From contig JBEKSC010000001.1 of assembly GCA_049517415.1 (NCBI GenBank), positions 159,146 through 223,145 on the forward strand: DNA of 64,000 nucleotides, in the 5' to 3' direction. Each line of letters starts with the position of its first letter. Positions within the stretch are counted from its first letter, which is position 1. Below are positions 2,008-39,629 of the stretch, in pieces. The notes below the pieces were generated by a model. That model saw only the letters and a program-made list of their open reading frames with translations, searched no databases and was not told the origin of the DNA. This stretch comes from Candidatus Bathyarchaeia archaeon (GTDB lineage: Archaea; Thermoproteota; Bathyarchaeia; 40CM-2-53-6). A program made the translations under genes and the position numbers.

Positions 2008-3081
2008 TTACTTTCGGCGTGTCGGCGTGCGGCGATCTCCCATAACCATAGCCATCACGGCTTTTTGGGCATGCAACCTGTTCTCGGCTTGCTCGAAGTA
2101 TAGTGAGTAACTCTCATTATCAATTACGTCATCAGTAACTTCTTGTCCCCGGTCCGCCGGGCCGCAATGCATGTACTTGCCTTTCTTTGTTAGATCCATC
2201 ATCTCCTGGGTGCATATCCAGTCCTTGAACTGGTCTTGGTAAGTGGTCGCGCCGGTCTTGTCTAGTGAGTCGCGGTGCGGAGGAAAATAGTTCTTCGGCG
2301 ACCAGGCCTTCGGGTACACTACATCAGCGCCGTTGAAGGCTTCCTTCATATCGTTAACTACATGGAACCCGCCGCCGTACCTGTCCGCATTCTTCTTCGC
2401 GGCATCAAGGACCACATCTTCTAGTTCGAAGCCTTGCGGGTGCGCGAGGACTACGTCCATTCCTAGTTGCGTTCCGATTAGAACCTCATTTTGCGGGACG
2501 GCTAGTGGCTTTAGTCCGCCAGAGTACGCATAAGAGACAACGAGTTTCTTTCCTTTCAGTTTAGGAATAGCATTTCTCATAGCCTGGGCATCGGCCAAAG
2601 CTTGGAATGGGTGATACATGTCATCCTCCATATTCAACACTGGAATGGTTGCGTACTTTGCAAATTCCCGAACAACCTTGTGGCCTCTGCCTATGATCCA
2701 TTTCGCTGCATCGCCATAGATTCTGATTGCAATCGCGTCCCCGTACCTGCTCAATACACGTGAAACGTCAGAAATTGCTTCAGTTTGATAAGCGACCATG
2801 TCTTCGGGAAGCGCGGGTGTGTAAACGTCTTGTGGACTAAGAAAGTGGGCGTGACCGCCGAGTTGATACATTCCCGCCTCGAAAGAATTCCTTGTCCTGA
2901 GAGAGCGGTTATAGAACATCATGAAGAGGGTTTTTCCAGATAGATAGTGATGCTCCTTTCGGGAACGAAATAGTTTCCTCAATACGTCGGCTGCGTCTAG
3001 AGCTTCCTTAATTTGTTCCTGCGAGAAATCATCTGTATTTAAGAAATGTTTACCCTTCCATTTGCCTACGAACGACGGCAT
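2008..3081 (-). CDS. Carbamoyltransferase (OTCase/ATCase superfamily), YgeW-like
   Basis: SLRTR, HPFQALAD and HCGP motifs; YAYSGGLKPLAVPQ loop resembles the YgeW WAYSPSYGKPLSVPQ loop; no OTCase SMG motif; GGAGG SD upstream. Confidence 0.85.
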   Translation of the reverse strand: MPSFVGKWKGKHFLNTDDFSQEQIKEALDAADVLRKLFRSRKEHHYLSGKTLFMMFYNRSLRTRNSFEAGMYQLGGHAHFLSPQDVYTPALPEDMVAYQTEAISDVSRVLSRYGDAIAIRIYGDAAKWIIGRGHKVVREFAKYATIPVLNMEDDMYHPFQALADAQAMRNAIPKLKGKKLVVSYAYSGGLKPLAVPQNEVLIGTQLGMDVVLAHPQGFELEDVVLDAAKKNADRYGGGFHVVNDMKEAFNGADVVYPKAWSPKNYFPPHRDSLDKTGATTYQDQFKDWICTQEMMDLTKKGKYMHCGPADRGQEVTDDVIDNESYSLYFEQAENRLHAQKAVMAMVMGDRRTPTRRK

Positions 3082-3307
3082 ATTTGTTACCTCCTCGTGT
3101 TGTTTGCTTGCGCGTATTTGAATTAAGCTCTTAGAGAAAGACGTTTCCTTCTAGGGCAATCACCATGACTCTGTCAATCAATCTCGCTTCATCTCAGAAG
3201 AGAAGCACAACCTCTCATTACACCCTTTATGAACTTTCATGATTTTCCTAGTTTCGGAAAGTTCTATCTAGCTCGAAAGAGTATCTTCGAGACAAATAGA
3301 GGAACTT

Positions 3308-4336
3308 TTGATGGCGAAGGTTGATTTGGCCGGTAAGGACTTAATCACCACACAAGATTGGTCACTTGATGAACTTCGGGCAACACTTAAAGTGGCACGG
3401 GAACTGAAGATGAAATATAGGCGCGGCCGCGTCCCACCCCTTCTTCGTAATAAGACGTTTTTCATGTTGTTTTATGCGCCTTCGACCAGGACGAGGGCTG
3501 CGTTTGAAGCCGGTATGACATACCTAGGCGGCCATGCGCAGTATATCGATGTCTCAACAACCCGGCTCGGGTCGGGTGAGGCTCCGAAGGATGTGGCTAA
3601 GATGTATGAGAAATATGGCCACGGGTTAGGGGTTCGAATTCTAGATTCAGCGATCGATTATGTTTACGGCGCTGGAATTTCCGTCGTACGAGAGTATGCA
3701 AAACATGCGGAGATTCCTGTCATTAACATGGCATGCTGTACCTACCACCCGACTCAGGGACTTGCGGATCTGATGACCGTTCAGGAATCATTGGGTAAGG
3801 TGCAGGGTAAGAAGTATGTCATAATGTGGGGGTACGCGAAGAGCTTCCGTGGCAGGTGTAGCATACAAGAGGAGGCATTGATCATGCCCCGCTTCGGAAT
3901 GGATGTTGTTCTGGCCCATCCGCCGGGCTTCGAAATTGACCCAAAGATAGTGGAAACAGCAAAGTCAAATGCCACAGAGGCAGGTGGCAGCTTTCAAGTC
4001 TCAAACGATTTGAAGTCAGCTATCGAGGGGGCCCATGCGGTCTTCCCTAGAAATTGGGCGTCATCTGAATTGCTTCAAGTCGGGGCAAGTAAGTTTGGGA
4101 AGGAAAGAGAGATGGAATTACATGAGAAGTACCGCAATTGGACATTTAATCAGGATTTGCTTGATAGGATGGACAGAAAGGCTGTCGTGACTCATGTACT
4201 GCCTGTGCTTCGCGGAGAAGAAGCAACAGATGACGTAATGGATGGCCCCCACTCAGTTATCTATCCACAAGCTGAGAATGGCATGTACACCAAAATGGCG
4301 GTTCTCGCAGTAACCATGGGCCGCAGAAAAAAGTGA
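3308..4336 (+). CDS. Second carbamoyltransferase-superfamily protein (non-canonical OTCase)
   Basis: STRTR, HPTQGLAD, HVLP (instead of HCLP) and QAENG motifs; WGYAKS loop; no SMG motif. Confidence 0.85.
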   Translation: MMAKVDLAGKDLITTQDWSLDELRATLKVARELKMKYRRGRVPPLLRNKTFFMLFYAPSTRTRAAFEAGMTYLGGHAQYIDVSTTRLGSGEAPKDVAKMYEKYGHGLGVRILDSAIDYVYGAGISVVREYAKHAEIPVINMACCTYHPTQGLADLMTVQESLGKVQGKKYVIMWGYAKSFRGRCSIQEEALIMPRFGMDVVLAHPPGFEIDPKIVETAKSNATEAGGSFQVSNDLKSAIEGAHAVFPRNWASSELLQVGASKFGKEREMELHEKYRNWTFNQDLLDRMDRKAVVTHVLPVLRGEEATDDVMDGPHSVIYPQAENGMYTKMAVLAVTMGRRKK

Positions 4337-4351
4337 AGACATCTCCTTGAA

Positions 4352-5602
4352 CTAGAGTTTCAGTATACGATCCAACTCTTGCATTGAGGCGTCAATGAGA
4401 GGTATCTCTGGCATTCCTTTTGTTGCCACATTCGGATCTTTCAAACCGCTTCCCGTTATCTCCACCACAACACAATCAGCCTTGTCTATATTTTCACGTT
4501 CTTTGATCACGCCGGCTAGTGATGTTACCCCGGACGGTTCAGCGAAAATCCCTTCGTATTTGGCGAGCTTCTTCTGTGCCTCTAGGATTTCGTCGTTCGA
4601 AACCGCAACGGCCGCGCCATGAGAGTTGCGGATGGCAACGAGAGCGGCATCGCCATCCCAAGGATATGGGTCCATGAGTCCTGTTGCAACGGAGTCGGGC
4701 ATTTCCCACGGAACTATGTTTTTCGAGTCGGCGCCTTGCTCGTAGGCCCGAATTACGGGGGCGCAACCGGTCGATTGGACAGCAGCCATTCTCGGCATTG
4801 ATTTTATGAAACCTAAGTTCTGAAAATCGAGGTAGCCTTTCCAGTTTCCCGCAAGTGCACCCCCTGCGCCCACGGGAACGAAGACCCAGTTGGGGACCTC
4901 CCAACCGAGCCCTTCCACGATCTCATAGGACATAGTCTTCGGACCCTCTGCTTGGTACGGGTTCATGGGGCCAAAGCTGGGGCAAGGGTACCAGTTGTTC
5001 TTGTCACAAACAGCCTTCAGCATTATCACAGTTGGATCCTCCCCTGATTCTAACCCTCGAACCTTGACAACATGAGCCCCGTACATCGTTAGCTGGGCCA
5101 ATTTTCCTATGCTCGCCATCTCTGGGACGAAGGTGATGCATCGGAGCCCTGCCTTCGCAGAGTAGGCCGATAACGCTGCAGCAGCGTTACCACTTGAGGC
5201 TGAAACAACCGTTCGGTAGCCCAGCTCAACAGCTTTCGAGACGCCAACAGTCATCGGTCTGTCTTTGAACGAGGCGGTCGGATTGCGAGTGTCATCCAGC
5301 AGCCAAAGATTATCCAAGCCTAACTTCTCGCCGAATCGGTGTGCCCGCAAAAAAGGGGTTCCGCCTTCTCCGAGGCTAACTATGTTCTTCGGATCGTTAA
5401 TCGGCAAAAGTTCCCTGTACTTCCAAACTCCGTTTGGCCTTCTCGACAGTGTCTCTATCTTGATGGCATCCCGCAAAGCTTCGTAGTCATAGAAGATGTC
5501 TAAGCGGCCGTCATCGTGATTTGCGCACCGGATCGCGCCAGAGCTAGGTTCGTACTCCCTCCCACAGCGAGCGCACTTCATCAGCTTAAGGAAGGACTTC
5601 AT
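4352..5602 (-). CDS. thrC: Threonine synthase-like PLP enzyme (fold type II); substrate may differ
   Basis: N-terminal CxxC, SLGEGGTP, NPTASFKDR (PLP Lys), SSGNAA, PVGAGG, EGIFAEPS, TGSGLKD. Confidence 0.8.
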   Translation of the reverse strand: MKSFLKLMKCARCGREYEPSSGAIRCANHDDGRLDIFYDYEALRDAIKIETLSRRPNGVWKYRELLPINDPKNIVSLGEGGTPFLRAHRFGEKLGLDNLWLLDDTRNPTASFKDRPMTVGVSKAVELGYRTVVSASSGNAAAALSAYSAKAGLRCITFVPEMASIGKLAQLTMYGAHVVKVRGLESGEDPTVIMLKAVCDKNNWYPCPSFGPMNPYQAEGPKTMSYEIVEGLGWEVPNWVFVPVGAGGALAGNWKGYLDFQNLGFIKSMPRMAAVQSTGCAPVIRAYEQGADSKNIVPWEMPDSVATGLMDPYPWDGDAALVAIRNSHGAAVAVSNDEILEAQKKLAKYEGIFAEPSGVTSLAGVIKERENIDKADCVVVEITGSGLKDPNVATKGMPEIPLIDASMQELDRILKL

Positions 5603-6651
5603 TCAACAATTTCCCAACGCGATTGATACTTGTCCAGCTGCGTAGTTGTGTACTCGTCAAGTGGATGTTCTCTTTCTGGGACCTCCACATGTTTCTTTTC
5701 GCCGCAGAGTTCCGTTGAGAAGTATCGTTGGCCGGTGTCATTCACCATCGTTACAATCGTTTTGTACCCAGGGTGTCGCTTGGCGATCTTTATTGCTGCA
5801 ACTACATTGCATCCTGAGGATATCCCGCAGAAGATTCCTTCCTCCCTAGCTAGCCTTCTGCCCATTTCAATGGATTCATCTGAGCCAGTTGTAATTATCC
5901 CTGTGAGATAGCTGAGGTCGAGGTTTACCGGGACAAAACCGTCTCCAATTCCTTCGATCTTATGAGTTCCCCATTGACGATGAGCTAGGATTGGTGCTTC
6001 CGACGGTTCCACTGCGAAAAGCGCCACATTCTTTTTCTTCTTTCTCAGGTATTTGCCAACACCCGTCAAAGTACCCCCAGTTCCTTGTGACGCTAGGAAA
6101 CAGTCAACTTTTCCTTCGCTCTGCTCCCAAATCTCGGGGCCAGTTGTTTTGTAATGGGCGGCAACATTGTCTTTGTTGCTGAACTGGCCGGGCTCCCAAT
6201 ATTTGCCTGGACTTGCTTGCTTTAGTTCCTCAATCTTCTTCAGACATAGGTCCACGTCGCTTTCTGCCCCTGGCGTTGTAATGATCTCGGCTCCGTAAGC
6301 CCGTATGATCTTCATCCTCTCTTGGCTCATGCCCGCAGGCATAACGATCGTTACCTTGTGACCTAACGTAGTACCAACAAATGAGCAAGCGATTCCAGCA
6401 TTGCCCGTAGAAGCTTCCAGTATTTCCATTTCAGGCCGTAATTCCCTGCGCTCAATCGCCTTCGTTATCATTTCGAAATATATACGGTCCTTGAGGCTGC
6501 CGGTTGGATTCATGTACTCAAGCTTAACCAGAATGTTCGCTTTGACGCCCTCAGATGCCGGTATCCTCCGCAATTTGACGAGTGGAGTCCGACCGATCGT
6601 TTGGAATACGCCGTCAGCGACTTTACGCGATTTCGTCCACTTTATGCTCAT
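5599..6651 (-). CDS. cysK: Cysteine synthase family PLP enzyme
   Basis: IGRTPLV, KLEYMNPTGSLKDR, STGNAG, GTGGT, HKIEGIG, GISSG, DTGQRYFST. Confidence 0.82.
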   Translation of the reverse strand: MSIKWTKSRKVADGVFQTIGRTPLVKLRRIPASEGVKANILVKLEYMNPTGSLKDRIYFEMITKAIERRELRPEMEILEASTGNAGIACSFVGTTLGHKVTIVMPAGMSQERMKIIRAYGAEIITTPGAESDVDLCLKKIEELKQASPGKYWEPGQFSNKDNVAAHYKTTGPEIWEQSEGKVDCFLASQGTGGTLTGVGKYLRKKKKNVALFAVEPSEAPILAHRQWGTHKIEGIGDGFVPVNLDLSYLTGIITTGSDESIEMGRRLAREEGIFCGISSGCNVVAAIKIAKRHPGYKTIVTMVNDTGQRYFSTELCGEKKHVEVPEREHPLDEYTTTQLDKYQSRWEIVE

Positions 6652-6708
6652 TTGCCTCAGACCACCATTTCGCTAGGCTACTTCAAACTTGAACCTTATG
6701 GTAGGTTC

Positions 6709-8100
6709 CTAGGAAACCGCCCACTTGGGTTCGATTTCGAGACCCGCCCTTTCCAAGAGCTTTTGGCCCCTTTCGTTTGCCTCTTTGAGGATTTCCTCCT
6801 CTTCGAGTGTTTTGAGGTTTCTGTTTTCCATTACGACTTCACCATCAATTATCACGGTTTCGACATCGGTTCCCTCCGCCGCGTAAATGAGGTGTGAAAC
6901 TGGGTTGAAAACTGGTGTCAGGTGAGGTTTGTTCATTGCTATCATGATTACATCAGCTTTCTTATTCACCTCGATCGACCCCAAGTCTGTCTGCTTGCCA
7001 ATGGCTTTTGCTCCGTTGATCGTGGCCATTTCGAGAACTGTCTCAGCATTCATCACTAGTGGGTCGAGCAACCTTGCCTTTTGAAGTAGCGAAGCCGTTT
7101 TCATTTCACGGACAAGGTCGTAGCAGTTGTTGCTTGGGCCGCCGTCACATCCGAGACCCACATTCACTCCCGCTTGCAACATTTCCGGGACCTTTGTAAT
7201 TCCAGATGCAAGTTTCATGTTCGATGATGGGCAATGGGCGACACTACCTCCCTTATCGGCCAATATTCTCCATTCCTTCTCAGTGAGCCAGACACCGTGG
7301 GCGAAAACAACATTCTGGCCCACTAAACCGACTTCATTCATGAATTCCGCTGGCAACATTCCAAATTCTTTCTTGGTATACCGAACGTCCTCCTGAACCT
7401 CGCTCAGGTGCATCGTCACTCCCGTTCCGAGATCTCGAGCGCCGATTGCGATACGTTCGTACAGGTCTTTCGTGCAGCCACCAAGGGACCGAGCACCATA
7501 CCAAACCTTAATCCTCTCGTTCGCTTTGCCGTCCCACCGTTTGAAGTGTGATTCGATTTCGCGAAGGCAGGTTTCAGGGTCTTCGATCATCCCGGGGTGC
7601 ATTATGCTTTTTTCAGTTCCGTAGCCCGGCAGTCCCATAACAGTCTTTGAGAGGATGCCACGCATTCCTGATTTCTGCACGCTTTCGGCTATGCCATCGA
7701 AGCCATAACGCGTATGCAATAGGCTCTCGAGGAAGGTTGTCGTTCCTGATTTTATCATTTCAAGCATGCACAGATTGGCACTTGCCTTTCCATCCCCTGC
7801 TTCGAAGTTGCCTTGAAGGGGCCAGACAAATTTCTGGAGCCAATCTATTAGTGACGTATCGTCCGCGCATCCACGGATAAGAGCTTGGGCTAGGTGAACG
7901 TGCGTATCAATAAGCCCCGGGAGGACAACCATCCCTTTTGCGTCTATTTCGTACTCAGGCCGCGGATGCACTCTAATTTGGTCTGCCTTCCCCACTTCGG
8001 CGATACGGTCGTTTTCGACCCGAACTGCTCCGTCCCTAATAATTCGCCGATTCGCATCCATGGTTATGACTGTCCCGCCGGAAATCAGAATAGACGCCAT
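6709..8100 (-). CDS. Amidohydrolase, nucleobase deaminase family (TrzA/MtaD/8-oxoguanine deaminase-like)
   Basis: DTHVHLAQ, HLSE, AHGVW, HCPSSNMKLASG, GLGCDG motifs; start moved to ATG 8100 (MASILISGG). Confidence 0.88.
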   Translation of the reverse strand: MASILISGGTVITMDANRRIIRDGAVRVENDRIAEVGKADQIRVHPRPEYEIDAKGMVVLPGLIDTHVHLAQALIRGCADDTSLIDWLQKFVWPLQGNFEAGDGKASANLCMLEMIKSGTTTFLESLLHTRYGFDGIAESVQKSGMRGILSKTVMGLPGYGTEKSIMHPGMIEDPETCLREIESHFKRWDGKANERIKVWYGARSLGGCTKDLYERIAIGARDLGTGVTMHLSEVQEDVRYTKKEFGMLPAEFMNEVGLVGQNVVFAHGVWLTEKEWRILADKGGSVAHCPSSNMKLASGITKVPEMLQAGVNVGLGCDGGPSNNCYDLVREMKTASLLQKARLLDPLVMNAETVLEMATINGAKAIGKQTDLGSIEVNKKADVIMIAMNKPHLTPVFNPVSHLIYAAEGTDVETVIIDGEVVMENRNLKTLEEEEILKEANERGQKLLERAGLEIEPKWAVS

Positions 8101-8221
8101 GATGACCACTTCGCCGGGTGCTTGGATTGCACACGTCTGCTTTAATTGAATTTCCTGTGCAACAAACCTGACAAGCATAGAAGGGCGAGGCTGATTCTGT
8201 CAAAACGCTCGACCATTGCAC

Positions 8222-8390
8222 TTAACGATTGGCCTCGGGACGGATGAATACTTGACCGACATGTTTGACGTCATCCGCGCTACGTTCCTGATTCACGAGA
8301 GGTATCTGCAGGATGCATGCGTCATGCCGGCTGAGACAGTTCTAGATATTGCGAAAATCAAGGGCGCGGAGGCAGCAGGACTTGGAGATT
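8222..8390 (+). pseudogene. Remnant of a second amidohydrolase (C-terminal segment only)
   Basis: LTIGLGTD..DMFDVIR..AETVLDIAKIKGAEAAGL aligns by eye with VGLGCD..AETVLEMATINGAKAIG of the adjacent gene; no N-terminal metal motifs. Confidence 0.65.
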
Positions 8391-8558
8391 CACGGTCTGT
8401 TCTCAAAGCATTTCAGAGCCATGAGGGTTGGTGCGGCAGGCCATACATCTTAGGCTCACTTCTACTTATTGAGGTAGGAATAAGTGACTGCGCAACTGAT
8501 AAGTTACTTTGCGAGAAAGGAGTTGTACAAGGGGAATTGAGGCCTGGCGTCCGCTCGC

Positions 8559-9362
8559 GTGACTGAAGATTCGAAGCGGTTGTTCTATGCGTTCTTGATC
8601 TCTGCGATTCTTCTTGTAGTAGTGATTCTCCCAGTCTATGTTCTTAGGATTCCGTTCGTTTCAAGTTTACCCAAAAGATTGAAGATTGGCGATTCTTGGA
8701 CCTACCAAGTCATCTTTCCTGATGGGGAAAGTTACGAATTGACCGAATCAGTCAAGGATACGGTTCAATTGAACGGAACCGAAACCTATCTCCTTCTCCG
8801 AGACGACCCACAGCATGCTTCAACCGAATACCTGTGGATAACTCCAGATTGGCACGAAGTCAAAACATTCCAGCCTAACATCGGGAACATCGTTGCAAAC
8901 TCGACCGTCATTTATTCTCCTCCCATCGAGTTACTTCAAATTCCGTTACGCGTTGGCGACAAGTGGATCGTCAACAGCACTAAGACTATCATAACCCAGC
9001 TAAAGAATTCGAAAATCCAAACAATAACGCAATTGGTCGAGAAAAGAGAATTTGAGAAAATCGACGAGATTTCAACTCCAGCAGGATCATTTCGCGCCTT
9101 CAAGGTCAGTGTAACCATGAATGGCGTACCTATTGAGATTACATGGTTTGATACATCATTGGGTCAAATCGTAAGAGGAGAATATTACAATGGTCCAGAG
9201 GTGGTCACGCAGTCGCTCGTGTCTTACTCAGAGACGTTTCCAGCGACTTCCACATTTACCATGGCCTTTTATCCAACCGTGAACCGTGCTTGGAGACATT
9301 TCGGAAGTTATATCTACAACATCGTTCGAACCTTTACTGAGTTGAAAATATCTTATGACTGA
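8559..9362 (+). CDS. Membrane-anchored hypothetical beta-rich protein
   Basis: N-terminal TM; LKIGDSWTY / PLRVGDKW repeat and ISTPAGSFRAFKV motif; stop overlaps the BMP start. Confidence 0.7.
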   Translation: MTEDSKRLFYAFLISAILLVVVILPVYVLRIPFVSSLPKRLKIGDSWTYQVIFPDGESYELTESVKDTVQLNGTETYLLLRDDPQHASTEYLWITPDWHEVKTFQPNIGNIVANSTVIYSPPIELLQIPLRVGDKWIVNSTKTIITQLKNSKIQTITQLVEKREFEKIDEISTPAGSFRAFKVSVTMNGVPIEITWFDTSLGQIVRGEYYNGPEVVTQSLVSYSETFPATSTFTMAFYPTVNRAWRHFGSYIYNIVRTFTELKISYD

Positions 9363-10557: not shown

Positions 10558-10632
10558 CTTCTCTAACGCAACCGCTCCCCTCACTCTTTTTTCTTTCACA
10601 TTAATTAAATTTGATAGCGGAAGATTTCAAGA

Positions 10633-12180: not shown

Positions 12181-12184
12181 AGCA

Positions 12185-13252: not shown

Positions 13253-13255
13253 ATT

Positions 13256-22093: not shown

Positions 22094-22103
22094 GTGGGCT
22101 CTG

Positions 22104-28271: not shown

Positions 28272-28282
28272 TCGCCACTACG

Positions 28283-30639: not shown

Positions 30640-30658
30640 GCCCGAATACTGTGGTAAA

Positions 30659-30669
30659 GGTATAAAAAT
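30659..30669 (-). promoter_or_regulatory. Putative TATA box of the integrase gene
   Basis: Minus strand ATTTTTATACC about 25 nt upstream of in-frame CTG 30639. Confidence 0.45.
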
Positions 30670-30922
30670 TCTCGCTATTCTTGAAGGTAAAGAGCTACCC
30701 GTTTCATGGTTCGAATACTACCTCATAGTTGAAGATTAGCATTACATATGTGAAACTTCTGATTTCTGACTTGAGGAGACCTTCCGCTACCGGTTTCTGA
30801 TACGTGAAAATGTCTGTTATGTACCGCAACTCATGAACGGTTAAGAATGAGCTAATGGAACTCTTTCTGGGGTCCCGATCACTCGGAGTTCATCCGGTCC
30901 AGGCCTAGAGGTGTCAGGTTGA

Positions 30923-31399
30923 GTGGGCATTGAGCACGCCATAAGTTTCAGGCTTAACGGGCAAAATGTAACAGTGAACTGTCCCTCTGCTTACACCTTG
31001 CTTGAGGTTCTTCGCGAGCAACTGCACGTGACAGGGCCGAAGGAAGACTGCGCTAAGGGCGAATGCGGGGCCTGCACAGTACTGATGAACGGCCAACCCG
31101 TCTGTTCCTGCCTCGTCCTAGTTTCACAAGCGCAAGGCTCTGAGGTCATTACATCAGAAGGGCTCGTGAAAGATGGAAAACTGAACCCAGTTCAGCAAGC
31201 CTTCCTGGAGGAGGGAGCCGTTCAATGCGGCCATTGTATTCCAGGCATGATCGTTTCAGCCTCAGCACTCTTAATGCGTAACCAGAAACCTTCCGTGGAA
31301 GAAATTCGGACAGCCCTATCAGGCAACCTCTGCAGGTGCACTGGCTACAGTAAGATAATCACAGCCGTTCAGAAGGCCGCAAAGAATTGGAGTCATTGA
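30923..31399 (+). CDS. Xanthine dehydrogenase family 2Fe-2S subunit (complex 1)
   Basis: CAKGECGAC, QCGHC, NLCRCTGY. Confidence 0.95.
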   Translation: MGIEHAISFRLNGQNVTVNCPSAYTLLEVLREQLHVTGPKEDCAKGECGACTVLMNGQPVCSCLVLVSQAQGSEVITSEGLVKDGKLNPVQQAFLEEGAVQCGHCIPGMIVSASALLMRNQKPSVEEIRTALSGNLCRCTGYSKIITAVQKAAKNWSH

Positions 31400-31403
31400 A
31401 TCT

Positions 31404-32288
31404 TTGATGCGCTCCGAAATCGATGTAATAACTCCCCGGACCTTGGATGAAGCGCTAAACATCCTCCATCAAGGTCACGCCGAGCTTAAGATTGTGGCCG
31501 GTGGCTCAGATGTAATTGTGCAACTTCGAGACGGCGTCCTGAAAGTCGAGAAACTTCTGAACATACTGTCTCTGAAGGAACTGAGATTCATACGGGAGCA
31601 AGATGGCTTGATTCACGTTGGTTCCCTAGCCACCTATAGCGACATCACGAATTCCCAGTTAGCGAAAGAGCATGCTTGGGTTCTTGTTGACGCTTCTAGG
31701 CAGATTGGTGCGGTCCAACTCCAGAATACGGCAACGTTAGGTGGGAACCTAGGTAACGCTTCACCGGCAGGGGACAGCCTCCCCCCATTGTATGCTCTCG
31801 AGGCTGTTGTTGTCACGAGGAGTAAAAGCGGTCGACGCGAAACCCCCGTCGAACAATTTTTCGTCTCCTATAGAAAGACCGCACTTAGGCCAGACGAATT
31901 GATTGAAGAAGTCTACTTCAAGCCAATGAATTCAAAGGATCGCGGCGCCTACATGAAACTCGGCCTGCGTGAAGCTAATGCGATTTCAATCGTTGACGTG
32001 GCGGTTGTACTGCGCGAGAGAAGCAGGGACGGTTCGTTTGCTGAGGCGAGAGTTGCCCTAGGTGCTGTTGCGCCTGTAATAACGCGAGCTCGCAAGAGCG
32101 AGAAAGCGTTAGAGCATACCCCGTTGAAGGAGAAAACGCTGCGGGAAGCTGCCACGCTGGCCGCAGATGACGCTGCGCCGATAGATGACATTCGTGGTTC
32201 AGCTGAGTACAGGAAGGAGATGGTCGTTTCATCAGTCTACCAGGCCCTTTACGAGGCCGTGTACGGGAGGAAGAAGAATCACGAGTAA
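31404..32288 (+). CDS. Xanthine dehydrogenase family FAD subunit (complex 1)
   Basis: AGGSD, ATLGGNLGNASPAGD, PIDDIRGSAEYR. Confidence 0.93.
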   Translation: MMRSEIDVITPRTLDEALNILHQGHAELKIVAGGSDVIVQLRDGVLKVEKLLNILSLKELRFIREQDGLIHVGSLATYSDITNSQLAKEHAWVLVDASRQIGAVQLQNTATLGGNLGNASPAGDSLPPLYALEAVVVTRSKSGRRETPVEQFFVSYRKTALRPDELIEEVYFKPMNSKDRGAYMKLGLREANAISIVDVAVVLRERSRDGSFAEARVALGAVAPVITRARKSEKALEHTPLKEKTLREAATLAADDAAPIDDIRGSAEYRKEMVVSSVYQALYEAVYGRKKNHE

Positions 32289-32520
32289 TCCTGTCCACAT
32301 CCGGGTCAGAATCTTTGGCGCTCCTTCGCTCGCGCTGGAGAGCAACGAACTAACACTTGAATTAGGCGAAGGCGCGACAATTGAAGATCTGCTCAACTCC
32401 ATCCCAGTTAAGGACAAAAACTACCTCTACATTGTTCGAGAAGGAGTCAGGCTCAAACCATCAACCAGACTCAATAACGGCGATGAAATCTTGGTCGTCC
32501 CACCGATAGCGGGAGGTTGA
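32281..32520 (+). CDS. MoaD/ThiS/SAMP ubiquitin-like sulfur carrier 1 (start uncertain)
   Basis: beta-grasp pattern, LNNGDEILVVPPIAGG C-terminus; best-placed start is ACG 32281 after GGGAGG. Confidence 0.8.
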   Translation, partial: TSNPVHIRVRIFGAPSLALESNELTLELGEGATIEDLLNSIPVKDKNYLYIVREGVRLKPSTRLNNGDEILVVPPIAGG

Positions 32521-34835
32521 GTCAGATGACTGAGACCGTTGTACTCGGCAAGGGAAAAATGAAGTGGGTTGGAAAATCAGTCGTTCGGCGAGACGGTGCG
32601 GGCAAAGTTACCGGTGAGACCAAGTTCTTTTCGGACATGTCAGTACCGAAGATGCTCTATGCTAAGGTTGCGAGAAGCAAATACCCTCATGCTCTGATTA
32701 AGAGAATCAGCACGGAGAAGGCTGAAGCGGTACCTGGCGTTGTGGCGGTTCTTACCCACAGGGATGTCCTTGGACTCAACGGGTTTGGGATCCTTCTGCC
32801 CGACCAACCCGTTCTATGTAACGACAAGGTGAGATACCTAGGAGACGCAATCGCTGTTGTCGCAGCGGAGAATTTGGAAGCAGCAGAGAAAAGTGCGCAG
32901 CTCGTCGAAGTTGACTACGACCCTCTCCCAGTCGTTTCCGACCCAGTAGAAGCCATGAAACCTGATGCCCCGAAAGTCCACGAAAAGGGAAACGTCTTGA
33001 GGCATTCAATTGTTCGCGTGGGTGATGTCCAAAAGGCATTCCGAGAAGCCGCGGTGGTCGTTGAAAATACGTACCGCACCGGGCGGCAGATGCACATGTT
33101 TCTTGAGGTTGAAGCCGGCCTCGGCATGCTCGATGATGAAGGAAGGATCGTGCTCTACGTGGGAGGACAATCACCTTACAGAGATCAAATGCAGGTCTCG
33201 AGGGCTCTCGGAATAAAACCTGAACAGGTTAGGGTTGTGTCTACACCAGTTGGAGGTGCCTTCGGCGCTAAAGAAGAGAACACAGTCCAAATTCACCTCG
33301 CTATGCTCGCGCTGAAAACGAAACGCCCGGTAAAGATGGTGTGGACTCGGGAAGAGTCCGGGGTCACCGGCATAAAACGCCACCCAATGATAGTCACAAC
33401 GAAGACCGCAGTGGACAAGGAAGGTCGACTTCTCGCAAATCAAGTCCGCATAGTTGCCGACACGGGCGCATACGCGTCGCTGGGACCCACTGTGCTAGAT
33501 GTTGCTATTGAGAATTCATGCGGGCCCTACCGAATACCAAACATCGATATAGACGCCTCACTGGTTTACACTAACAATGGCGTGGCTGGTGCATTCCGCG
33601 GTTTCGGCGCACCACAAGTCAACTTCGCATTAGAATCTAACATAGACATCATTGCAGGGAGACTCGGTATAGATAGATTGAAGATTCGCAAGAAGAACGT
33701 TCTCCGCGAAGGTGAGATTGGCCCCTTCGGTTACAAACTGCGCGGAAGCGTAGGCATCTATGAAACCCTCGAGAAAGCCGAGAAATCTGATGTTTGGAGA
33801 AATCGGAAACAATACAAATCCAAACCGTCGGCGCCTTGGTGCAAGAGAGGGGTCGCAGTAACAACGGCTGTGAAAGGTTTTGGTTTCGGAGCATTACCGG
33901 ATTTTGCCGCCGTCTCAATTCAGATCACACCGGCCGGTAAGTTCGTTGTTGGGGTAAGCTGCCCGGAGATTGGACAAGGAGCTGTGACGGCGTATTCGCA
34001 AATTGCTGCTGAGGCTCTGCACTGCGACCTCGGAGAAGTCTACATCGCCTCAGCAGATTCACAGCTAGCACCAGACACTGGCACATCATCAGCATCCATG
34101 GCCTTGGTCAGAGGAGGCAACGCGATCCTTGCTGCGGCTCCAAAGATGAACGATTTGCTACTTGAGGCAGCAGCGAAGATTCTCAGCCAACCAAAGGAGG
34201 AGCTAACCTTCAAAGACTCCCGCGTGGTTGCGATGAAGAACAAGAACGCTACCACATACACTGAAATCGCCCAATACATGCATCAATCAGGAGCGGAAAC
34301 CAAGATCGAGGCTGGCTACAATGTCCCACGGGTCGACAAACCCGTCGAAGGGAGCATAGAGATTCCGCACTGGTCCTATATGTACGCAAGCGCAGTTGCG
34401 TTAGTGGAAGTAAACACTCTAACAGGAGCCACGAAGGTTATCAAATTCTATCTATCGCCTGAATCGGGAAGAATCATCAACCCACAATCCTACACCGGCC
34501 AATGCGAAGGCGCGATAGTCCAAGGCCTAGGCTTCGCACTAACTGAAGAGACCCAGATCCATAACGGCATAGTAAGAACAAACAACTTCACCACCTACAT
34601 TATTCCGACAATATGTGACATCCCGGAGATTGAAGTGGATCCGGTTGAAACTTACGAGAAGATCGGACCATTCGGGGCGAAAGGCCTAGGGGAGATCGGC
34701 ATAATTCCGGTGGGTTCAGTCGTGGCTAATGCGATATGTGACGCGACTGGCACACGCGTCTACACATTACCTGCAACGCCGGAAAGGGTTTACAAGGCGA
34801 TGAAAGAACGGGAAGCTGGAACAAGTGCGAGTTAA
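32517..34835 (+). CDS. Xanthine dehydrogenase family molybdopterin-binding subunit (complex 1)
   Basis: GGAFGAK, AFRGFGAPQ, EIGQG, GPFGAKGLGE (catalytic Glu). Confidence 0.95.
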   Translation: MSQMTETVVLGKGKMKWVGKSVVRRDGAGKVTGETKFFSDMSVPKMLYAKVARSKYPHALIKRISTEKAEAVPGVVAVLTHRDVLGLNGFGILLPDQPVLCNDKVRYLGDAIAVVAAENLEAAEKSAQLVEVDYDPLPVVSDPVEAMKPDAPKVHEKGNVLRHSIVRVGDVQKAFREAAVVVENTYRTGRQMHMFLEVEAGLGMLDDEGRIVLYVGGQSPYRDQMQVSRALGIKPEQVRVVSTPVGGAFGAKEENTVQIHLAMLALKTKRPVKMVWTREESGVTGIKRHPMIVTTKTAVDKEGRLLANQVRIVADTGAYASLGPTVLDVAIENSCGPYRIPNIDIDASLVYTNNGVAGAFRGFGAPQVNFALESNIDIIAGRLGIDRLKIRKKNVLREGEIGPFGYKLRGSVGIYETLEKAEKSDVWRNRKQYKSKPSAPWCKRGVAVTTAVKGFGFGALPDFAAVSIQITPAGKFVVGVSCPEIGQGAVTAYSQIAAEALHCDLGEVYIASADSQLAPDTGTSSASMALVRGGNAILAAAPKMNDLLLEAAAKILSQPKEELTFKDSRVVAMKNKNATTYTEIAQYMHQSGAETKIEAGYNVPRVDKPVEGSIEIPHWSYMYASAVALVEVNTLTGATKVIKFYLSPESGRIINPQSYTGQCEGAIVQGLGFALTEETQIHNGIVRTNNFTTYIIPTICDIPEIEVDPVETYEKIGPFGAKGLGEIGIIPVGSVVANAICDATGTRVYTLPATPERVYKAMKEREAGTSAS

Positions 34836-35094
34836 GGTTAGGTTATTTCACGAATTGAGGGCGAGCGTAGGCGAGAGTGAAATCGAAGTTCAAGCAAGCA
34901 CCTTGAACGAAGTGCTCCAAGCTCTCATCAATAAGGACGGAGCCGTTAAGGATATGCTCTTTGACCCTGAAGGGCAACTCCGAGGGTACACCCTTTTCTA
35001 CGTTAATAATGCGGTTCAGAATCCACCTGATCTTTCGATGAAACTAAATGACGGAGACCTCGTATTACTAGTTCCAGCAGCAGCAGGTGGGTGA
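34825..35094 (+). CDS. MoaD/SAMP ubiquitin-like sulfur carrier 2
   Basis: MRVKVRLF..LNDGDLVLLVPAAAGG C-terminal diglycine. Confidence 0.9.
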   Translation: MRVKVRLFHELRASVGESEIEVQASTLNEVLQALINKDGAVKDMLFDPEGQLRGYTLFYVNNAVQNPPDLSMKLNDGDLVLLVPAAAGG

Positions 35095-35099: not shown

Positions 35100-35987
35100 A
35101 TGCGTAAGTTCGACATGTACGTCCCAGAGGACCTACCCGACCTACTTCACTACCTAAACACACACCAGTCCGGAGCCCACCTGATAGCGAATGGAAGCGA
35201 CCTAATCAGCCGAATCCAACGCAGGCAGGTTAACCCCAGAACGCTGATCGACCTTTCAGGTTTAACGGAATTCAATTACGTGAAAAAGGTTGGAGACCTA
35301 ATCATAATAGGTGCACTAACAACGATATCCGACCTGATCAACTCACCCATCATAGATTCGCGACACGAAGTTTTCCGCGAGGTCGCGGCGAAGTTCGGTG
35401 GGCCAGCGATAATCAACGTGGCCACTGTGGGCGGCAACATTTGCGCTGCCTCATCCTCTGAAGACCTCCTACCTGTACTCCTAGTCCTTGACGCACAAGT
35501 TCGCATGCGCAGCGAACATGGGGAACGCGTAATGCGGCTTGAGGATTTTCTGAAGGGCAAACGAGTAACCGACCTGAAACCAAACGAAATTGTTGTTGAG
35601 ACCATGTTCAAGGCACTCGATGACCAAACCGCATGCGCCTTCGAGAAAATTGGGATGAGAAATTCACTGATAATTGCTTTCGTTAATTCAGCTGTCTATC
35701 TGAGGCTGGAAAGGAAAACTAAGCGTGTCGAAGATGTTCGAATTGCCTTCAACCGCGTGGGTGGAAAGATCCCGGAACGATCGAAGCGGACTGAAGAAAA
35801 ATTACGCGGACGAATGCTGAGTGCGCAGGCCGTCGAGGATGCTGCCCATGCTTTGAGGAGCGAGCTGAAGCTAAGTTCAGATTTCAGAGCCTCGGGCGAA
35901 TACCGCACTGAGGTCGCGGGTGTGCTTTTCAAGCGGGCTCTTGGTAGGTCTGCGAGGATGTTGTCAGGGGAGGAAAACTTTGTCTAA
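35100..35987 (+). CDS. Xanthine dehydrogenase family FAD subunit (complex 2)
   Basis: ANGSD, ATVGGNIC, SDFRASGEYR. Confidence 0.92.
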   Translation: MRKFDMYVPEDLPDLLHYLNTHQSGAHLIANGSDLISRIQRRQVNPRTLIDLSGLTEFNYVKKVGDLIIIGALTTISDLINSPIIDSRHEVFREVAAKFGGPAIINVATVGGNICAASSSEDLLPVLLVLDAQVRMRSEHGERVMRLEDFLKGKRVTDLKPNEIVVETMFKALDDQTACAFEKIGMRNSLIIAFVNSAVYLRLERKTKRVEDVRIAFNRVGGKIPERSKRTEEKLRGRMLSAQAVEDAAHALRSELKLSSDFRASGEYRTEVAGVLFKRALGRSARMLSGEENFV

Positions 35988-36453
35988 GCATCTTCTGAAG
36001 TTCGCGGTCAATGGAAAGGACTACGCATTGATGGTCCAATCCCATGAACGATTATTGGATGTTCTTCGTGACAGGTTAGGTTTGAAGGGTACCAAGGAAG
36101 GTTGCAGCACGGGTGACTGCGGCATATGCGCTGTGTTGATGGATGGGAAACTCGTCAACTCATGCTTAATTTTCGCCATACAAGCCAGAAACAAGAAGAT
36201 CGTAACCATCGAAGGAATCGGAACCGCCGAGAAGCTTCACCCACTACAACGAACGTTCATGGAACGGAATGCGTCTCAATGTGGATTTTGCATCCCAGCC
36301 ATGATTCTGGCATCAAAGAACCTTCTCGACAAGAACCCCAACCCAACTGAGGACCAGATCCGCAGGGCAACGAGCGGAATCCTATGCCGCTGTACAGGCT
36401 ACCTGAAAATCTTCGAGGCCGTGAAGGCAGCGGCTCATGAAATGGAGAAATAG
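35980..36453 (+). CDS. Xanthine dehydrogenase family 2Fe-2S subunit (complex 2)
   Basis: CSTGDCGIC, QCGFC, LCRCTGY; TTG 35980 after GGAGG. Confidence 0.94.
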   Translation: MSKHLLKFAVNGKDYALMVQSHERLLDVLRDRLGLKGTKEGCSTGDCGICAVLMDGKLVNSCLIFAIQARNKKIVTIEGIGTAEKLHPLQRTFMERNASQCGFCIPAMILASKNLLDKNPNPTEDQIRRATSGILCRCTGYLKIFEAVKAAAHEMEK

Positions 36454-36459
36454 GAACCA

Positions 36460-38790
36460 ATGGTTGATGACCAAGCCGCAGTAGAGAAACTCACGAAGAG
36501 CAGACAACTGCTAGTTGTGGGCAAAAACATTCAAAGACTCGACTCGGCCGACAAAGTGATTGGCAAACCAATCTACACAATGGATATCGTTCCGGAAAAT
36601 GTGCTGTACTTGAAGGTTGTGAGATCGAGCGTCGCGCATGCCCTATTGAAGCGGGTTGACGTTACCGAGGCTAGGAAATGGCCTGGCGTTGCGGCGGTTG
36701 TCACTGCCCAAGATATTCCGGGCATTAACGAGTCCACAGCACTTTTGCCAGACAAGCCGCTCTTCGCGACTGATAGAGTAAGATTTGCAGGCGAACCAAT
36801 TGCGGCCATCGCATCCTACGACCCATCCATCGCCGAGGAAGCAGTCGAATTGGTCAAGCTTGAGTACGAACCCCTGCCAGCAGTTTTCTCTCCTGTCGAT
36901 GCTTTGAAAACGGGCGCCCCAACAATTCACAGGAACGGAAACATAGCCAAGCATATGAAATTGCGAAAGGGGAACGTGGAGGAAGGCTTCAAACAAGCGG
37001 ACCTAATCGTTGAACGCACGTACAAGAGCCAGTTCCAAGAACCTGTCCCACTGGAAACTGAAGCGGGGTTCGTTGTTCCCGAGCCTGATGGTTCGGTAAC
37101 ATGCGTCGGCTCAATTCAGAGCCCCTTCCACGTCCAAACTGGCATAGCCAAAATTCTGTCACTGCGACCTGACCAGGTTCGCGTCATACAAGCCGTAACT
37201 GGCGGGGCGTTCGGTCCAAAGTCCGATGAGATACCGGTTGATGTCTTGGGGATGGCGGCGTTGGTCGCGGTAAAAACCCGGAAACCAGCAGCGCTAGCTT
37301 ACACTCGCGAAGAATCCATGGTAGGACACACGAAGCGCCACCCATTCGTTACGACATTGAAGGTCGGCGTGAAGAAGCATGGCAAATTCACGGCTTGGCA
37401 AGCAACCATGCTAGCGGACACAGGAGCATACGCCTCTCTAGGCCCACTCGTCATCATCCGGGCATGCTTCCATGCAACAGGCCCCTACGTTATCCCGCAC
37501 GTGAAAACAGACGCCTACTGCGTCTACACTAACAACACCATGGCCGGCTCCTTCCGAGGCTTCGGCGGCCCACAGGCGCATTTTGCGGCCGAATCAATCG
37601 CAGACGAGATTGCAAAGAAACTCGGCATGGATCCAATAGACTTCCGCCTGTTAAACATCCTGCGACCGGGAAGTTTGATGGCTACTAGCCAAGTCGTTGA
37701 CGAAGCATGCGGACTCGAAGAATGCATTAGCAAGGCCGCGAAAGAATCAGATTGGTATAGGAAGCGCGAAGAGTTCGCTAAGATGAGGGGAACCAAGCGC
37801 AGAGGCCTAGGCATCGCAATTCTCTACCATGGAAACAGCCTTGGCCCAGAGGGAAACGATTACGCCGCAGTCCACATGCAAATCGACAGGGACGGCACAA
37901 TCAGATTTAGAACTGGGCTCACGGAATATGGGACTGGAGCACCCTCCGGCCTAATACAGATCGCTGCGGAGACCATGCAACTCCCCATGAACCACTTTAG
38001 ACTGGAAGCACCCGACACAGATTTCTGCTCTGACACAGGCCCGACTGTCGCTTCGCGAACGATTACAATCGGCGGCCGCGCAACCCAGATGGTAGCGGGC
38101 ACGTTGAACCAGAAGCTCAAAGATATTGCAGCGGAAATGTTAGGTTGCGCGACCAGCGAAGTCGAATCAGCCGAGGCAAAATACTACCAGAAATCAAAGA
38201 CACAACATTCCTTCTCCTACCAAGAAGTGGTCGAATACGCTTACAGGCACGAGATCCAGCTGAAAGAGACTGGGACATTTACAGCGCCCAAATGCGAATA
38301 CAATCCTGAAACAAGCCAAGGAACAACATACTTGCAATACACATACGGCGCAGTCACAGCTGAAGTGGAAGTTGACACTGAAACTGGCAAAGTGCAGGTC
38401 AAAAAGATGGTCGCAGCCTACGACGTAGGCAAAGCCATCAACCCGCTATCCGTCGAAGGCCAAATCGAAGGGGGCACAGTGCAAGGATTAGGTTACGCAA
38501 TTATGGAAGAAATGATTCATAAAGATGGCATCGTCCAAAACCCCAACCTTGCGGACTACTACATACCCACCTCACTCGACATCCCCGAAATCAAAACGAT
38601 AATCGTAGAATACCCAGGACACCTAGGCCCATACGGCGCGAAAGCAATAGGGGAACCACCAATAGTCCTACCCGCCCCTGCCATCGTCAACTCAATTGAC
38701 AATGCACTAGGAATTAGGCTGTACGAAATACCCACAACACCCGATAAAGTGTTAATAGCCCTGAAGAGGGCGCGGGAAGCCAAAAAGTAA
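36460..38790 (+). CDS. Xanthine dehydrogenase family molybdopterin-binding subunit (complex 2)
   Basis: GGAFGPK, SFRGFGGPQ, TVASR, GPYGAKAIGE. Confidence 0.95.
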   Translation: MVDDQAAVEKLTKSRQLLVVGKNIQRLDSADKVIGKPIYTMDIVPENVLYLKVVRSSVAHALLKRVDVTEARKWPGVAAVVTAQDIPGINESTALLPDKPLFATDRVRFAGEPIAAIASYDPSIAEEAVELVKLEYEPLPAVFSPVDALKTGAPTIHRNGNIAKHMKLRKGNVEEGFKQADLIVERTYKSQFQEPVPLETEAGFVVPEPDGSVTCVGSIQSPFHVQTGIAKILSLRPDQVRVIQAVTGGAFGPKSDEIPVDVLGMAALVAVKTRKPAALAYTREESMVGHTKRHPFVTTLKVGVKKHGKFTAWQATMLADTGAYASLGPLVIIRACFHATGPYVIPHVKTDAYCVYTNNTMAGSFRGFGGPQAHFAAESIADEIAKKLGMDPIDFRLLNILRPGSLMATSQVVDEACGLEECISKAAKESDWYRKREEFAKMRGTKRRGLGIAILYHGNSLGPEGNDYAAVHMQIDRDGTIRFRTGLTEYGTGAPSGLIQIAAETMQLPMNHFRLEAPDTDFCSDTGPTVASRTITIGGRATQMVAGTLNQKLKDIAAEMLGCATSEVESAEAKYYQKSKTQHSFSYQEVVEYAYRHEIQLKETGTFTAPKCEYNPETSQGTTYLQYTYGAVTAEVEVDTETGKVQVKKMVAAYDVGKAINPLSVEGQIEGGTVQGLGYAIMEEMIHKDGIVQNPNLADYYIPTSLDIPEIKTIIVEYPGHLGPYGAKAIGEPPIVLPAPAIVNSIDNALGIRLYEIPTTPDKVLIALKRAREAKK

Positions 38791-38810
38791 GCCAGGGAGA
38801 AAGAAAAGAT

Positions 38811-39629
38811 ATGAAACTTATCCCAGTAGCGTCGGACACTGAGATCATTGAAGAAGCCAACAATTTGATCGAAGCCTCCAAAGCATTCGCTTGGGTAACG
38901 ATAATCGGCCAAGAAGGATCCAGCGCGCGGCACCTTGGCTCCTCGATGATTGTCACGAGCGAGGGTAGAGTGATCGGAACTGTTGGCGGAGCCATTGCCG
39001 AACTCCAACTAATCGACCAAGCCATTTCAGCAATCAAAGATGGAAAACCAAGAACCGTCAAAATGCCCCTCCCTGTATGCGCGGGCGTCATAACCTGCTT
39101 CATCAACGTCTTCCAACCACGCGAAACCTTACTCCTAGCCGGCGCAGGCCACGTCGCCCAACCCATGGCTACACTAGGAAAACTACTAGGGTTCAGGGTG
39201 GTCGTCGTCGACGACAGGACTGAGTACGCTACAAAGGAAAGGTTTCCAGAAGCGGACAAACTCATTGTTGATGACTGGGAGAAAGCGTTGAGGGAAGTCC
39301 CAATTGATGACCAGACGTATGTGGTGATCTTAACCTATGCTGGCGAATCCGATGAATTAGCCCTGAGAACCGTCATCGGGTCAAAAGCAGCCTACATAGG
39401 AATGATTTCAAGCGAATCCAAAGCGAAGGCGATTCTAGGGAAGTTGAGAAGGGATAAGATTCCCGAAGACCAGCTCCGCCGCGTGGTAACTCCAATCGGC
39501 TTGGATATTGGCGCTGAAACTCCAGCAGAAATCGCCGTTAGCACAATGGCTGAAATCATCATGCGAAGAAAGAAGGCTACCGGCAAGCCGCTTTCAATCG
39601 CTGAACGAGAGATCACCAGGACAAGTTAA
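38811..39629 (+). CDS. xdhC: XdhC/CoxI Moco-insertion accessory protein
   Basis: GTVGG, CAG, GAGHVA, YIGMI, PIGLDIGAETPAEIAVS. Confidence 0.92.
   Translation: MKLIPVASDTEIIEEANNLIEASKAFAWVTIIGQEGSSARHLGSSMIVTSEGRVIGTVGGAIAELQLIDQAISAIKDGKPRTVKMPLPVCAGVITCFINVFQPRETLLLAGAGHVAQPMATLGKLLGFRVVVVDDRTEYATKERFPEADKLIVDDWEKALREVPIDDQTYVVILTYAGESDELALRTVIGSKAAYIGMISSESKAKAILGKLRRDKIPEDQLRRVVTPIGLDIGAETPAEIAVSTMAEIIMRRKKATGKPLSIAEREITRTS

Follow-up and report, generated by a model that had tools for sequence, protein, structure and literature searches.

Candidate reductive purine fermentation with two carbamoyltransferases in a Bathyarchaeia archaeon

The anaerobic purine route of gut bacteria was solved in 2025 (10.1101/2025.04.24.650524; PMC12507026). 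We analysed a 64,000-nucleotide window (C1:159146-223145) from the genome of a Candidatus Bathyarchaeia archaeon, termed G000, and focused on a gene cluster at window positions 2008-39629. The original prediction, made from the letters of the window alone, read this cluster as an archaeal variant of anaerobic purine catabolism built from non-orthologous parts. Our comparisons support this interpretation at the level of sequence, and we think it reasonably probable that the cluster encodes an archaeal reductive fermentation of 2,8-dioxopurine, in which both ureido groups would be split by phosphate to yield two ATP per purine. Coordinates without a contig label are window positions; G-numbers denote the genomes compared, L-numbers the loci, g1 the organism's own genus and g5 the second genus of its family.

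Results

All genes named in the original prediction are present in the cluster (Table 1), including two xanthine dehydrogenase (XDH)-family complexes and two fold-II enzymes dependent on pyridoxal phosphate (PLP). As predicted, HyuA, YgeY, YgfK and an intact carbamate kinase are missing from the window, but a decayed kinase remnant was found inside it. The expected near-contiguity after removal of an inserted element was borne out by an arrangement that is conserved across genera and classes and is thus not due to chance, although four extra genes of unclear role (DUF3108, nucleotidyltransferase-like, APC permease and metallophosphoesterase) lie within the cluster. Families of the window proteins were assigned with Pfam and curated cut-offs such as the TIGR profiles. 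Among the cluster proteins, only the adenine deaminase clearly exceeds the curated cut-off of a specific family. The ThrC-like and CysK-like proteins exceed broad family cut-offs only, and both carbamoyltransferases (CT1 and CT2), the amidohydrolase, the LLM protein and both molybdenum (Mo) subunits are below all of theirs.

Table 1. Features of the cluster, in window coordinates
Feature	Position	Strand	Basis or remark
CT1, YgeW-like carbamoyltransferase	2008-3081	-	Pfam OTCace; YgeW clade
Carbamate kinase remnant (MVIALEGNVFL, then stop)	3131-3166	-	blastn gap vs G014
CT2, carbamoyltransferase with altered acceptor site	3308-4336	+	OTCace family; own clade
ThrC-like fold-II PLP enzyme	4352-5602	-	
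CysK-like fold-II PLP enzyme	5599-6651	-	own archaeal clade
Amidohydrolase (HVHLAQ; likely start 8100)	6709-8178	-	
BMP-family binding protein, ATPase, two permeases	9355-14197	+	Pfam Bmp, ABC_tran, BPD_transp_2
Adenine deaminase	18115-19911	+	TIGR01178 566.5 bits, cut-off 472.5
LLM-family reductase	19980-21017	-	
Integrase-bearing element	about 20980-30686		tyrosine integrase 29458-30510
Displaced original LLM 5' end (MKRVALYLQE, then stop)	30675-30707	-	
XDH-family complex X1 (Fe-S, FAD and Mo subunits)	30923-34835	+	Mo subunit 32517-34835
Two MoaD/ThiS-like genes with X1	32281-32520; 34825-35094	+	
XDH-family complex X2	35100-38790	+	
XdhC maturation factor	38811-39629	+	Pfam XdhC_CoxI, XdhC_C

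In a quick tree, CT1 and CT2 fall with E. coli YgeW and the YgeW-like proteins of bacteria in a single clade, distinct from the ornithine (OTC) and aspartate (ATC or ATCase) carbamoyltransferases; inside this clade, CT2 forms a clade of its own spanning Bathyarchaeia and Nitrososphaeria. The description of both enzymes as YgeW-like therefore holds for their clade, but the YgeW acceptor-site motifs are found only in CT1. In YgeW this site includes K203, K270 and a proline-rich loop (PMC4581275). CT1 retains the KPLAVPQ and VYPKAW segments of YgeW, with KPL and YPK motifs in 28/28 CT1 rows. In CT2, lysines are changed to arginines and the proline loop is lost, with YPK replaced by FPR in 29/29 rows, KPL by RGRCS in the most frequent forms, and ENR by ENG or ENL. 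Judged by the YgeW residues, CT1 reads as YgeW and CT2 does not. CT1 likely performs the first ureido phosphorolysis of 2,3-diureidopropionate, and CT2 likely takes the place of YgeY by performing the second. Both proteins score below the cut-offs of YgeW, OTC and N-acetylornithine carbamoyltransferase (AOTC), the best solved relative of CT1 being an AOTCase. Biosynthetic OTC or AOTC functions were rejected on these scores and on the presence of a canonical OTC on C42; a canonical ATC is encoded on C1.

The predicted replacement of YgeY by a second carbamoyltransferase finds comparative support. YgeY (TIGR03526) is above cut-off in 0/72 archaeal and 13/26 bacterial genomes; 20 of these bacterial genomes gave a readable YgeW-like locus and 6 gave none. 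Nine of the 20 loci carry a pseudo-ATCase without YgeY, seven carry YgeY without a pseudo-ATCase (its absence being judged only inside the stretch examined), four carry both and none lacks both. In Anaerolineae-type clusters, YgeY and the pseudo-ATCase alternate in one slot upstream of the carbamoyltransferase-kinase pair. The pseudo-ATCases lack the RxQ motif of ATCase in 14/14 rows, as described by Barba et al. (PMC4016543). Among archaea, CT2 occurs in 43 of 401 phylum genomes, including all 40 with an orthologue of SsnA, the marker of the pathway used by Li et al. (PMC12507026); CT2 alone was found in 3, SsnA alone in 0 and neither in 358, a pattern rather than a statistical test, given that these genomes are related. 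All nine non-Asgard archaeal genomes reached via LLM loci encode CT2 plus a second carbamoyltransferase reading as CT1 (65-85%).

In 16/16 g1 loci read across both genes, CT1 and CT2 flank a carbamate kinase. In G000, about 900 bp of it is deleted at 3132/3134 (blastn against G014 skips from 33136 to 34033), leaving a frameshifted remnant, and one identical 573-nt contig bridges the junction in 4/4 runs. The remaining kinase, at C1:24597-25622 and above the NF009007 cut-off, is part of a second nucleobase cluster outside the window (C1:18614-41733; L054, L055). That cluster encodes a TIGR03842 LLM, a methylmalonate-semialdehyde dehydrogenase, two class III aminotransferases, a BMP ATP-binding cassette (ABC) system, two carbamoyltransferases, a paralogue of the window LLM (53%), a dihydropyrimidinase, pyrBI and a deaminase. 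It looks like a route for reductive pyrimidine breakdown in which beta-ureidopropionate would be phosphorolysed instead of hydrolysed. One of its carbamoyltransferases, CT3, has a best match of 57% among 400 class genomes, and this lack of a close match suggests a late arrival of the second cluster, whose kinase probably then permitted loss of the first.

The other missing parts were sought by BLAST with the E. coli cluster and by family scans of G000. At C30:7012-11090 there are an SsnA-like protein, a cyclic amidohydrolase and MocA. FastTree was used for trees of the SsnA/amidohydrolase, cyclic-amidohydrolase, Mo-subunit and PLP families, with rows chosen by a length limit and, for SsnA, omitting those at least 85% identical to the copy of G000. 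The SsnA orthologue (C30:7012-8382) falls in a clade of archaeal proteins whose sister group is bacterial SsnA (support 96), and its assignment is drawn from tree and context rather than from a cut-off. In 7/7 relatives with enough contig, SsnA of this type adjoins the cyclic amidohydrolase and MocA. A GuaD is encoded on C3, and a dihydropyrimidinase above the TIGR02033 cut-off at C1:36807-38189 belongs to the second cluster. YgfK, YgfT, XanQ and UacT had no BLAST match in G000, and YgeY and DpaL had weak matches only. The search thus recovered a carbamate kinase and two candidate hydantoinases, so that the pathway described as incomplete is so within the window, whereas SsnA, the cyclic amidohydrolase, MocA and the kinase lie elsewhere in the genome.

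The co-location of the genes extends to relatives, with synteny across Bathyarchaeia genera and other classes. Orthologues of CT1 (at least 79% identity) are present in 19/22 genomes of the own genus, 4/5 of g5 and 0/9 of the family's three remaining genera; the corresponding counts for SsnA are 19/22, 5/5 and 0/9. The LLM orthologue occurs in 22/301 class genomes, all in the own genus and g5. Seven genomes (G014, G018, G001, G015, G006, G002 and G003) have a single block, XdhC-X2-X1-LLM-amidohydrolase-CT2-kinase-CT1, with the adenine deaminase included in six of them and with variable transporters and PLP genes, while in G011, G016, G017, G013 and G019 the carbamoyltransferase block is separate from the remaining cluster. 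In G036, 40 kb of one contig brings together MocA, the cyclic amidohydrolase and SsnA with the kinase, CT2, ThrC-like gene, amidohydrolase, LLM, X1 and X2, but without CT1, the adenine deaminase or the CysK-like gene. Further afield, loci of Caldarchaeales and Nitrososphaeria have the LLM gene beside SsnA and, after them, X2 or X1, CT2, kinase and PLP genes, in the order LLM-SsnA-X2-CT2-kinase-ThrC-CysK in Caldarchaeales. Closed genomes of family f36 encode CT1, CT2, kinase and SsnA.

The LLM protein is likely an F420H2-dependent 2,8-dioxopurine reductase standing in for YgfK or UacX. Comparative support for this predicted replacement of YgfK comes from the best 80 LLM loci, many of which end at contig edges: SsnA was counted at 45, Mo-hydroxylase subunits at 49 and F420 genes at 36, with YgfK and UacX-like genes at 0. 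In Chloroflexota the LLM orthologues adjoin SsnA proteins that pass the cut-off and XdhD-clade genes, and the order in Anaerolineae is ssnA-npdG-cofE-fbiB-cofD-cofC-LLM-xdhD. Conversely, LLM-less archaea with CT2 and SsnA (G547, G607, G661 and G665) have a PreA/UacX-like flavoprotein in the cluster. In five genomes scanned, YgfK (TIGR03315) was found in none, and a UacX-like query gave partial PyrD-like matches only. A homologue search for the LLM protein returned matches that are all at least 80% identical and carry generic names, the nearest named ones (82-92%) being Bathyarchaeia records. An AlphaFold model from a 10-row alignment had a mean pLDDT of 42.6 and was not used. G000 encodes cofC, cofD, cofE and npdG above cut-off. 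These genes, with several of the cofE family, lie on C8, C10, C15 and C45. cofG was found in 0/5 genomes; dependence on scavenged Fo is possible.

An element of about 9.7 kb is inserted in the 5' end of the LLM gene, with TCTTGAAG common to both ends, at 20980 and 30679. This 8-bp core was found by comparison with the empty site, and a repeat search across the element found no long attachment (att) repeat. The element is absent in G014, where 205 bp separate the LLM gene from the first Fe-S gene. Element-free relatives start the LLM protein with MKRVALYLQ; the insertion restores the frame by supplying a new N-terminus at 21017. A related integrase occupies the same site in G003, and similar new N-termini occur in G002 and G003. 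Apart from zinc ribbons, neither the integrase nor the remaining genes of the element could be placed in a Pfam or PHROGs family. The element enters a protein-coding gene at its 5' end and remakes the start of that gene, and its excision could act as a switch.

In FastTree, the X1 and X2 Mo subunits form separate archaeal clades. The best family of X1 is PucD, below cut-off, and the best solved relatives of the two are 4-hydroxybenzoyl-CoA reductase and nicotinate dehydrogenase. When aligned to bovine xanthine oxidase, X1 keeps the pocket Glu without the Arg and X2 keeps the Arg without the Glu, at pocket residues 802 and 880. By comparison, TIGR03311 proteins adjacent to SsnA keep both and show the Thr and Val changes reported by Liu et al. 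for 2,8-dioxopurine dehydrogenase (DOPDH; 10.1101/2025.04.24.650524). E606 of XdhD (Li et al.) had no useful mapping on X1 or X2. The substrates of the two complexes are assigned from context only, with X2 the likelier for the step from urate to 2,8-dioxopurine; X2 orthologues directly follow LLM-SsnA in L073, L081, L082 and L249. Each complex is preceded by a MoaD-like gene, and SelD (TIGR00476) is above cut-off in 0/5 genomes, which together suggest that X1 and X2 use sulfur rather than selenium. YqeC had no match in G000. Separately, aldehyde:ferredoxin oxidoreductases of the AOR family, usually tungsten enzymes, occur with 4Fe-4S partners in CT2/SsnA clusters at L245:10875-16896 (G661), L246 (G665) and L044 (G038), where they may replace the Mo-hydroxylases; no XDH-family Mo subunit was found in G661, which is 80% complete.

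The window amidohydrolase, whose best solved relative is atrazine chlorohydrolase, falls in a clade separate from SsnA, and its identification as SsnA was accordingly rejected. Its type is the best match to the guanine-deaminase profile in 4/5 cluster genomes without GuaD, making it a candidate guanine or 8-oxoguanine deaminase. Clusters of this type in archaea and in bacteria repeatedly include a BMP ABC system, and that of the window is likely a nucleoside importer.

DpaL (TIGR01747) was found in 0/24 archaeal and 4/26 bacterial genomes. Its predicted replacement by a ThrC- or CysK-like enzyme is favoured by these counts, except that a pair of enzymes, rather than one, appears to replace it. 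Both PLP genes belong to cluster-specific clades and are jointly swapped for a Chloroflexota-type pair in G013, G015, G016 and G022; the 480-residue PLP partner is missing from the three bacteria whose cluster includes DpaL. The CysK-like protein forms its own archaeal clade, distinct from the CysK of C14, and adjoins CT1 in Caldarchaeales and XDH genes in f36. The NSxNPxR motif of threonine synthase binds phosphate. Where solved threonine synthases have NPYR, the ThrC-like protein has NPYQ, with Gln for Arg in 17/17 rows of its clade, and it is a candidate for the diaminopropionate ammonia-lyase step. Biosynthetic roles were rejected given a canonical ThrC on C4 and a CysK on C14. E. coli DpaL accepts both enantiomers, which leads us to guess at one PLP enzyme per enantiomer, or a lyase plus a racemase.

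The stretch 2001-11900 is nearly complete in 20 runs, which come from 19 studies on peat, wetland and soil; 12 of these carry a flag as possible sources, and no RNA dataset is among the matches listed. An assembly chimera was rejected, since contigs from independent runs span the junctions, including the left junction of the element and a boundary at 8222, each bridged in 4/4 runs. The latter borders a middle segment (about 8220-21000) with 68-79% DNA identity to G014 against 93-94% in the flanks, its part at 14.3-21 kb being 82-86% identical to G013/G016/G019; it is a recombined tract ending at the element. Within it, the nucleotidyltransferase-like gene, APC permease and metallophosphoesterase (14285-17978) co-travel, at times away from purine genes (G006). 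Paralogous clusters that may serve other N-heterocycles occur in G011 (C3:338001-392000; L226-L228), G038, G047, G036 (C78), G009 (C130) and G002 (C34), with additional amidohydrolases, some of them SsnA-like, as well as LLMs, XDH-family genes and BMP ABC systems. A heterodisulfide-reductase-like trio (FAD/4Fe-4S, CCG and 4Fe-4S by Pfam) lies at 51412-54870.

Discussion

The genes, families, synteny, co-occurrence and slot swaps enable us to propose a putative pathway, in which we infer every activity. Initially, the BMP ABC system would bring in nucleosides, and adenine deaminase together with the window amidohydrolase or the GuaD of C3 would give hypoxanthine and xanthine. X1 and X2 would oxidize these to urate and then reduce urate to 2,8-dioxopurine, the ring of which the LLM enzyme would reduce with F420H2. 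Afterwards, SsnA and the adjoining cyclic amidohydrolase would open both rings to 2,3-diureidopropionate, from which CT1 and then CT2 would release two carbamoyl phosphates, to be converted to ATP by carbamate kinase (in G000, the copy at C1:24597-25622). Finally, the ThrC-like/CysK-like pair would turn diaminopropionate into pyruvate. By our arithmetic, the redox-neutral sum would be hypoxanthine + 6 H2O -> pyruvate + 2 CO2 + 4 NH3. We consider a purine pathway of this kind highly probable, and sequential double phosphorolysis somewhat better than an even bet.

The alternative nearest to this proposal retains the purine pathway with a single phosphorolysis per molecule. CT1 and CT2 would act side by side, each on its own substrate (the two enantiomers or some other ureido compound), and the remaining ureido group would leave as urea through PLP-dependent beta-elimination of albizziin or a distant M20 hydrolase. 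The maintenance and joint swapping of two PLP slots would suit it, as would a racemase-family gene in the clusters of G613 and G673, the existence of M20 hydrolases under the YgeY cut-off, and the four bacteria in which YgeY and a second carbamoyltransferase coexist. However, it is the second carbamoyltransferase that tracks the loss of YgeY; the PLP pair does not, because it is also present in bacteria that have YgeY. Moreover, in g5 and Caldarchaeales CT2, and not CT1, is tied to the kinase. We thus regard a single phosphorolysis as unlikely.

Degradation of some other N-heterocycle (a pyrimidine, pterin or nicotinate) by a cluster that merely resembles the purine route would fit the solved relatives of X1, X2 and the amidohydrolase, and paralogous LLM/carbamoyltransferase clusters exist, one of them on C1. 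Set against this are the adenine deaminase above cut-off in the cluster, the Chloroflexota LLM orthologues beside SsnA and XdhD-clade genes, IMP-dehydrogenase-family genes inside g5 clusters and the separate pyrimidine-type cluster of G000, which render this reading very improbable. We also give little credence to a pathway that is real in the lineage and partly inactive in this organism, running only upper, salvage-type steps. The deleted kinase, the element in the LLM 5' end and the failure to find CofG speak for such decay, but a second carbamate kinase is present, the LLM frame is restored with inserts at the same site and similar N-termini in G002 and G003, and the frames other than those of the kinase and the LLM start are all open, sharing 93-97% identity with G014 except in the middle segment.

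Several observations weigh against the reductive fermentation with double phosphorolysis that we favour. CT1 and CT2 score 170 and 135 against a YgeW cut-off of 453, archaeal SsnA is just under its cut-offs (411 vs 455.5; 422 vs 444), and neither X1 nor X2 clusters with E. coli XdhA or XdhD or with the TIGR03311 type. The cyclic amidohydrolase of C30 falls outside the HyuA clade, and a D-hydantoinase above cut-off was found in 0/5 relatives tested. In G000 the cluster's own carbamate kinase is deleted and the LLM gene is cut off from its native upstream region. The Fo synthase CofG was not found in five of five genomes including G000, with cofH not searched for, so that F420 would need salvage. 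Four bacterial genomes retain YgeY plus a pseudo-ATCase. The proposal offers no reason for two PLP enzymes, and G002 has a ThrC-type match and no 480-residue partner.

In a wider reading, to which we give even chances, several Thermoproteota lineages ferment purines by a selenium-free 2,8-dioxopurine pathway in which both ureido groups end up as carbamoyl phosphate, for two ATP per purine. Phosphorolysis of the second group would have two separate origins, the archaeal CT2 within the YgeW clade and the pseudo-ATCase of Chloroflexota and Actinomycetota. The upper steps would be modular, with an F420-LLM or UacX and with Mo-hydroxylases or AOR-family enzymes.

If true, the pathway extends to uncultured peat and wetland archaea and to hot-spring lineages, for which purines would be a source of carbon, nitrogen and ATP, and the second phosphorolysis doubles the substrate-level ATP yield from one to two per purine. 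The swaps bear on open questions of ureido group order, stereochemistry and electron donor. The order of ureido removal differs between Liu et al. (10.1101/2025.04.24.650524) and Li et al. (PMC12507026), and a YgeY replaced by an ATCase-derived enzyme would make the alpha-ureido group its more plausible target. If this replacement is real, the alpha-ureido group would be cut last, in better agreement with the order given by Liu et al. than with that of Li et al. The parts could also serve urate-lowering engineering, being selenium-free and possibly thermostable, and recombinant work is possible without metagenome bins, since the closed f36 genomes carry CT1, CT2, kinase and SsnA.

Novelty was judged against 10.1101/2025.04.24.650524, 10.1101/2025.05.19.654654, PMC12507026, PMC12990295, PMC4016543 and PMC4581275. 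An F420 luciferase-family reductase has already been proposed for Chloroflexota from gene neighbourhoods (Li et al. 2025, PMC12507026), in whose main text the string 'archae' is absent, and a 2025 commentary confines the anaerobic urate pathway to selected bacteria (PMC12990295). Our literature searches turned up neither an archaeal pathway nor double phosphorolysis, although supplementary genome tables could list archaeal members.

In its working, the G000 cluster would resemble the 2,8-dioxopurine pathway known from E. coli and Clostridium, with which it shares two Mo-hydroxylases and maturation factors, SsnA, a cyclic amidohydrolase, a YgeW-clade carbamoyltransferase, carbamate kinase, a fold-II PLP enzyme and purine deaminases. 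Under a strict definition it falls outside that pathway, lacking YgfK, YgeY, DpaL and SelD over cut-off, whereas the C. sporogenes enzymes require SelD. In their places the archaeal version has an LLM reductase, a second carbamoyltransferase and a PLP pair, as well as a non-HyuA ring opener and a BMP ABC system instead of bacterial XanQ/UacT. The Chloroflexota variant is similar in its orthologous LLM (about 60% identity) beside SsnA and F420 genes, its ThrC-type and second PLP enzymes, BMP ABC system and adenine deaminase; it differs in its XdhD-clade enzymes and HyuA-clade hydantoinases and in having YgeY or else a pseudo-ATCase, to which archaeal CT2 is a different, YgeW-clade solution. For pseudo-ATCases and ureidoglycine carbamoyltransferase (UGTCase), phosphorolysis was proposed in place of a ureido hydrolase, and a subgroup-2 pseudo-ATCase gene of Nocardioides adjoins a ygeW homologue, xdh and hyuA (PMC4016543). 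CT2 is unlike these in not being ATCase-derived, and UGTCase works in oxidative allantoate breakdown, unlike the role proposed for CT2. With the N-acetylornithine and ornithine carbamoyltransferases, CT1 and CT2 share the fold and the carbamoyl-phosphate motifs; unlike them, they score below those families' cut-offs and are located among purine genes.

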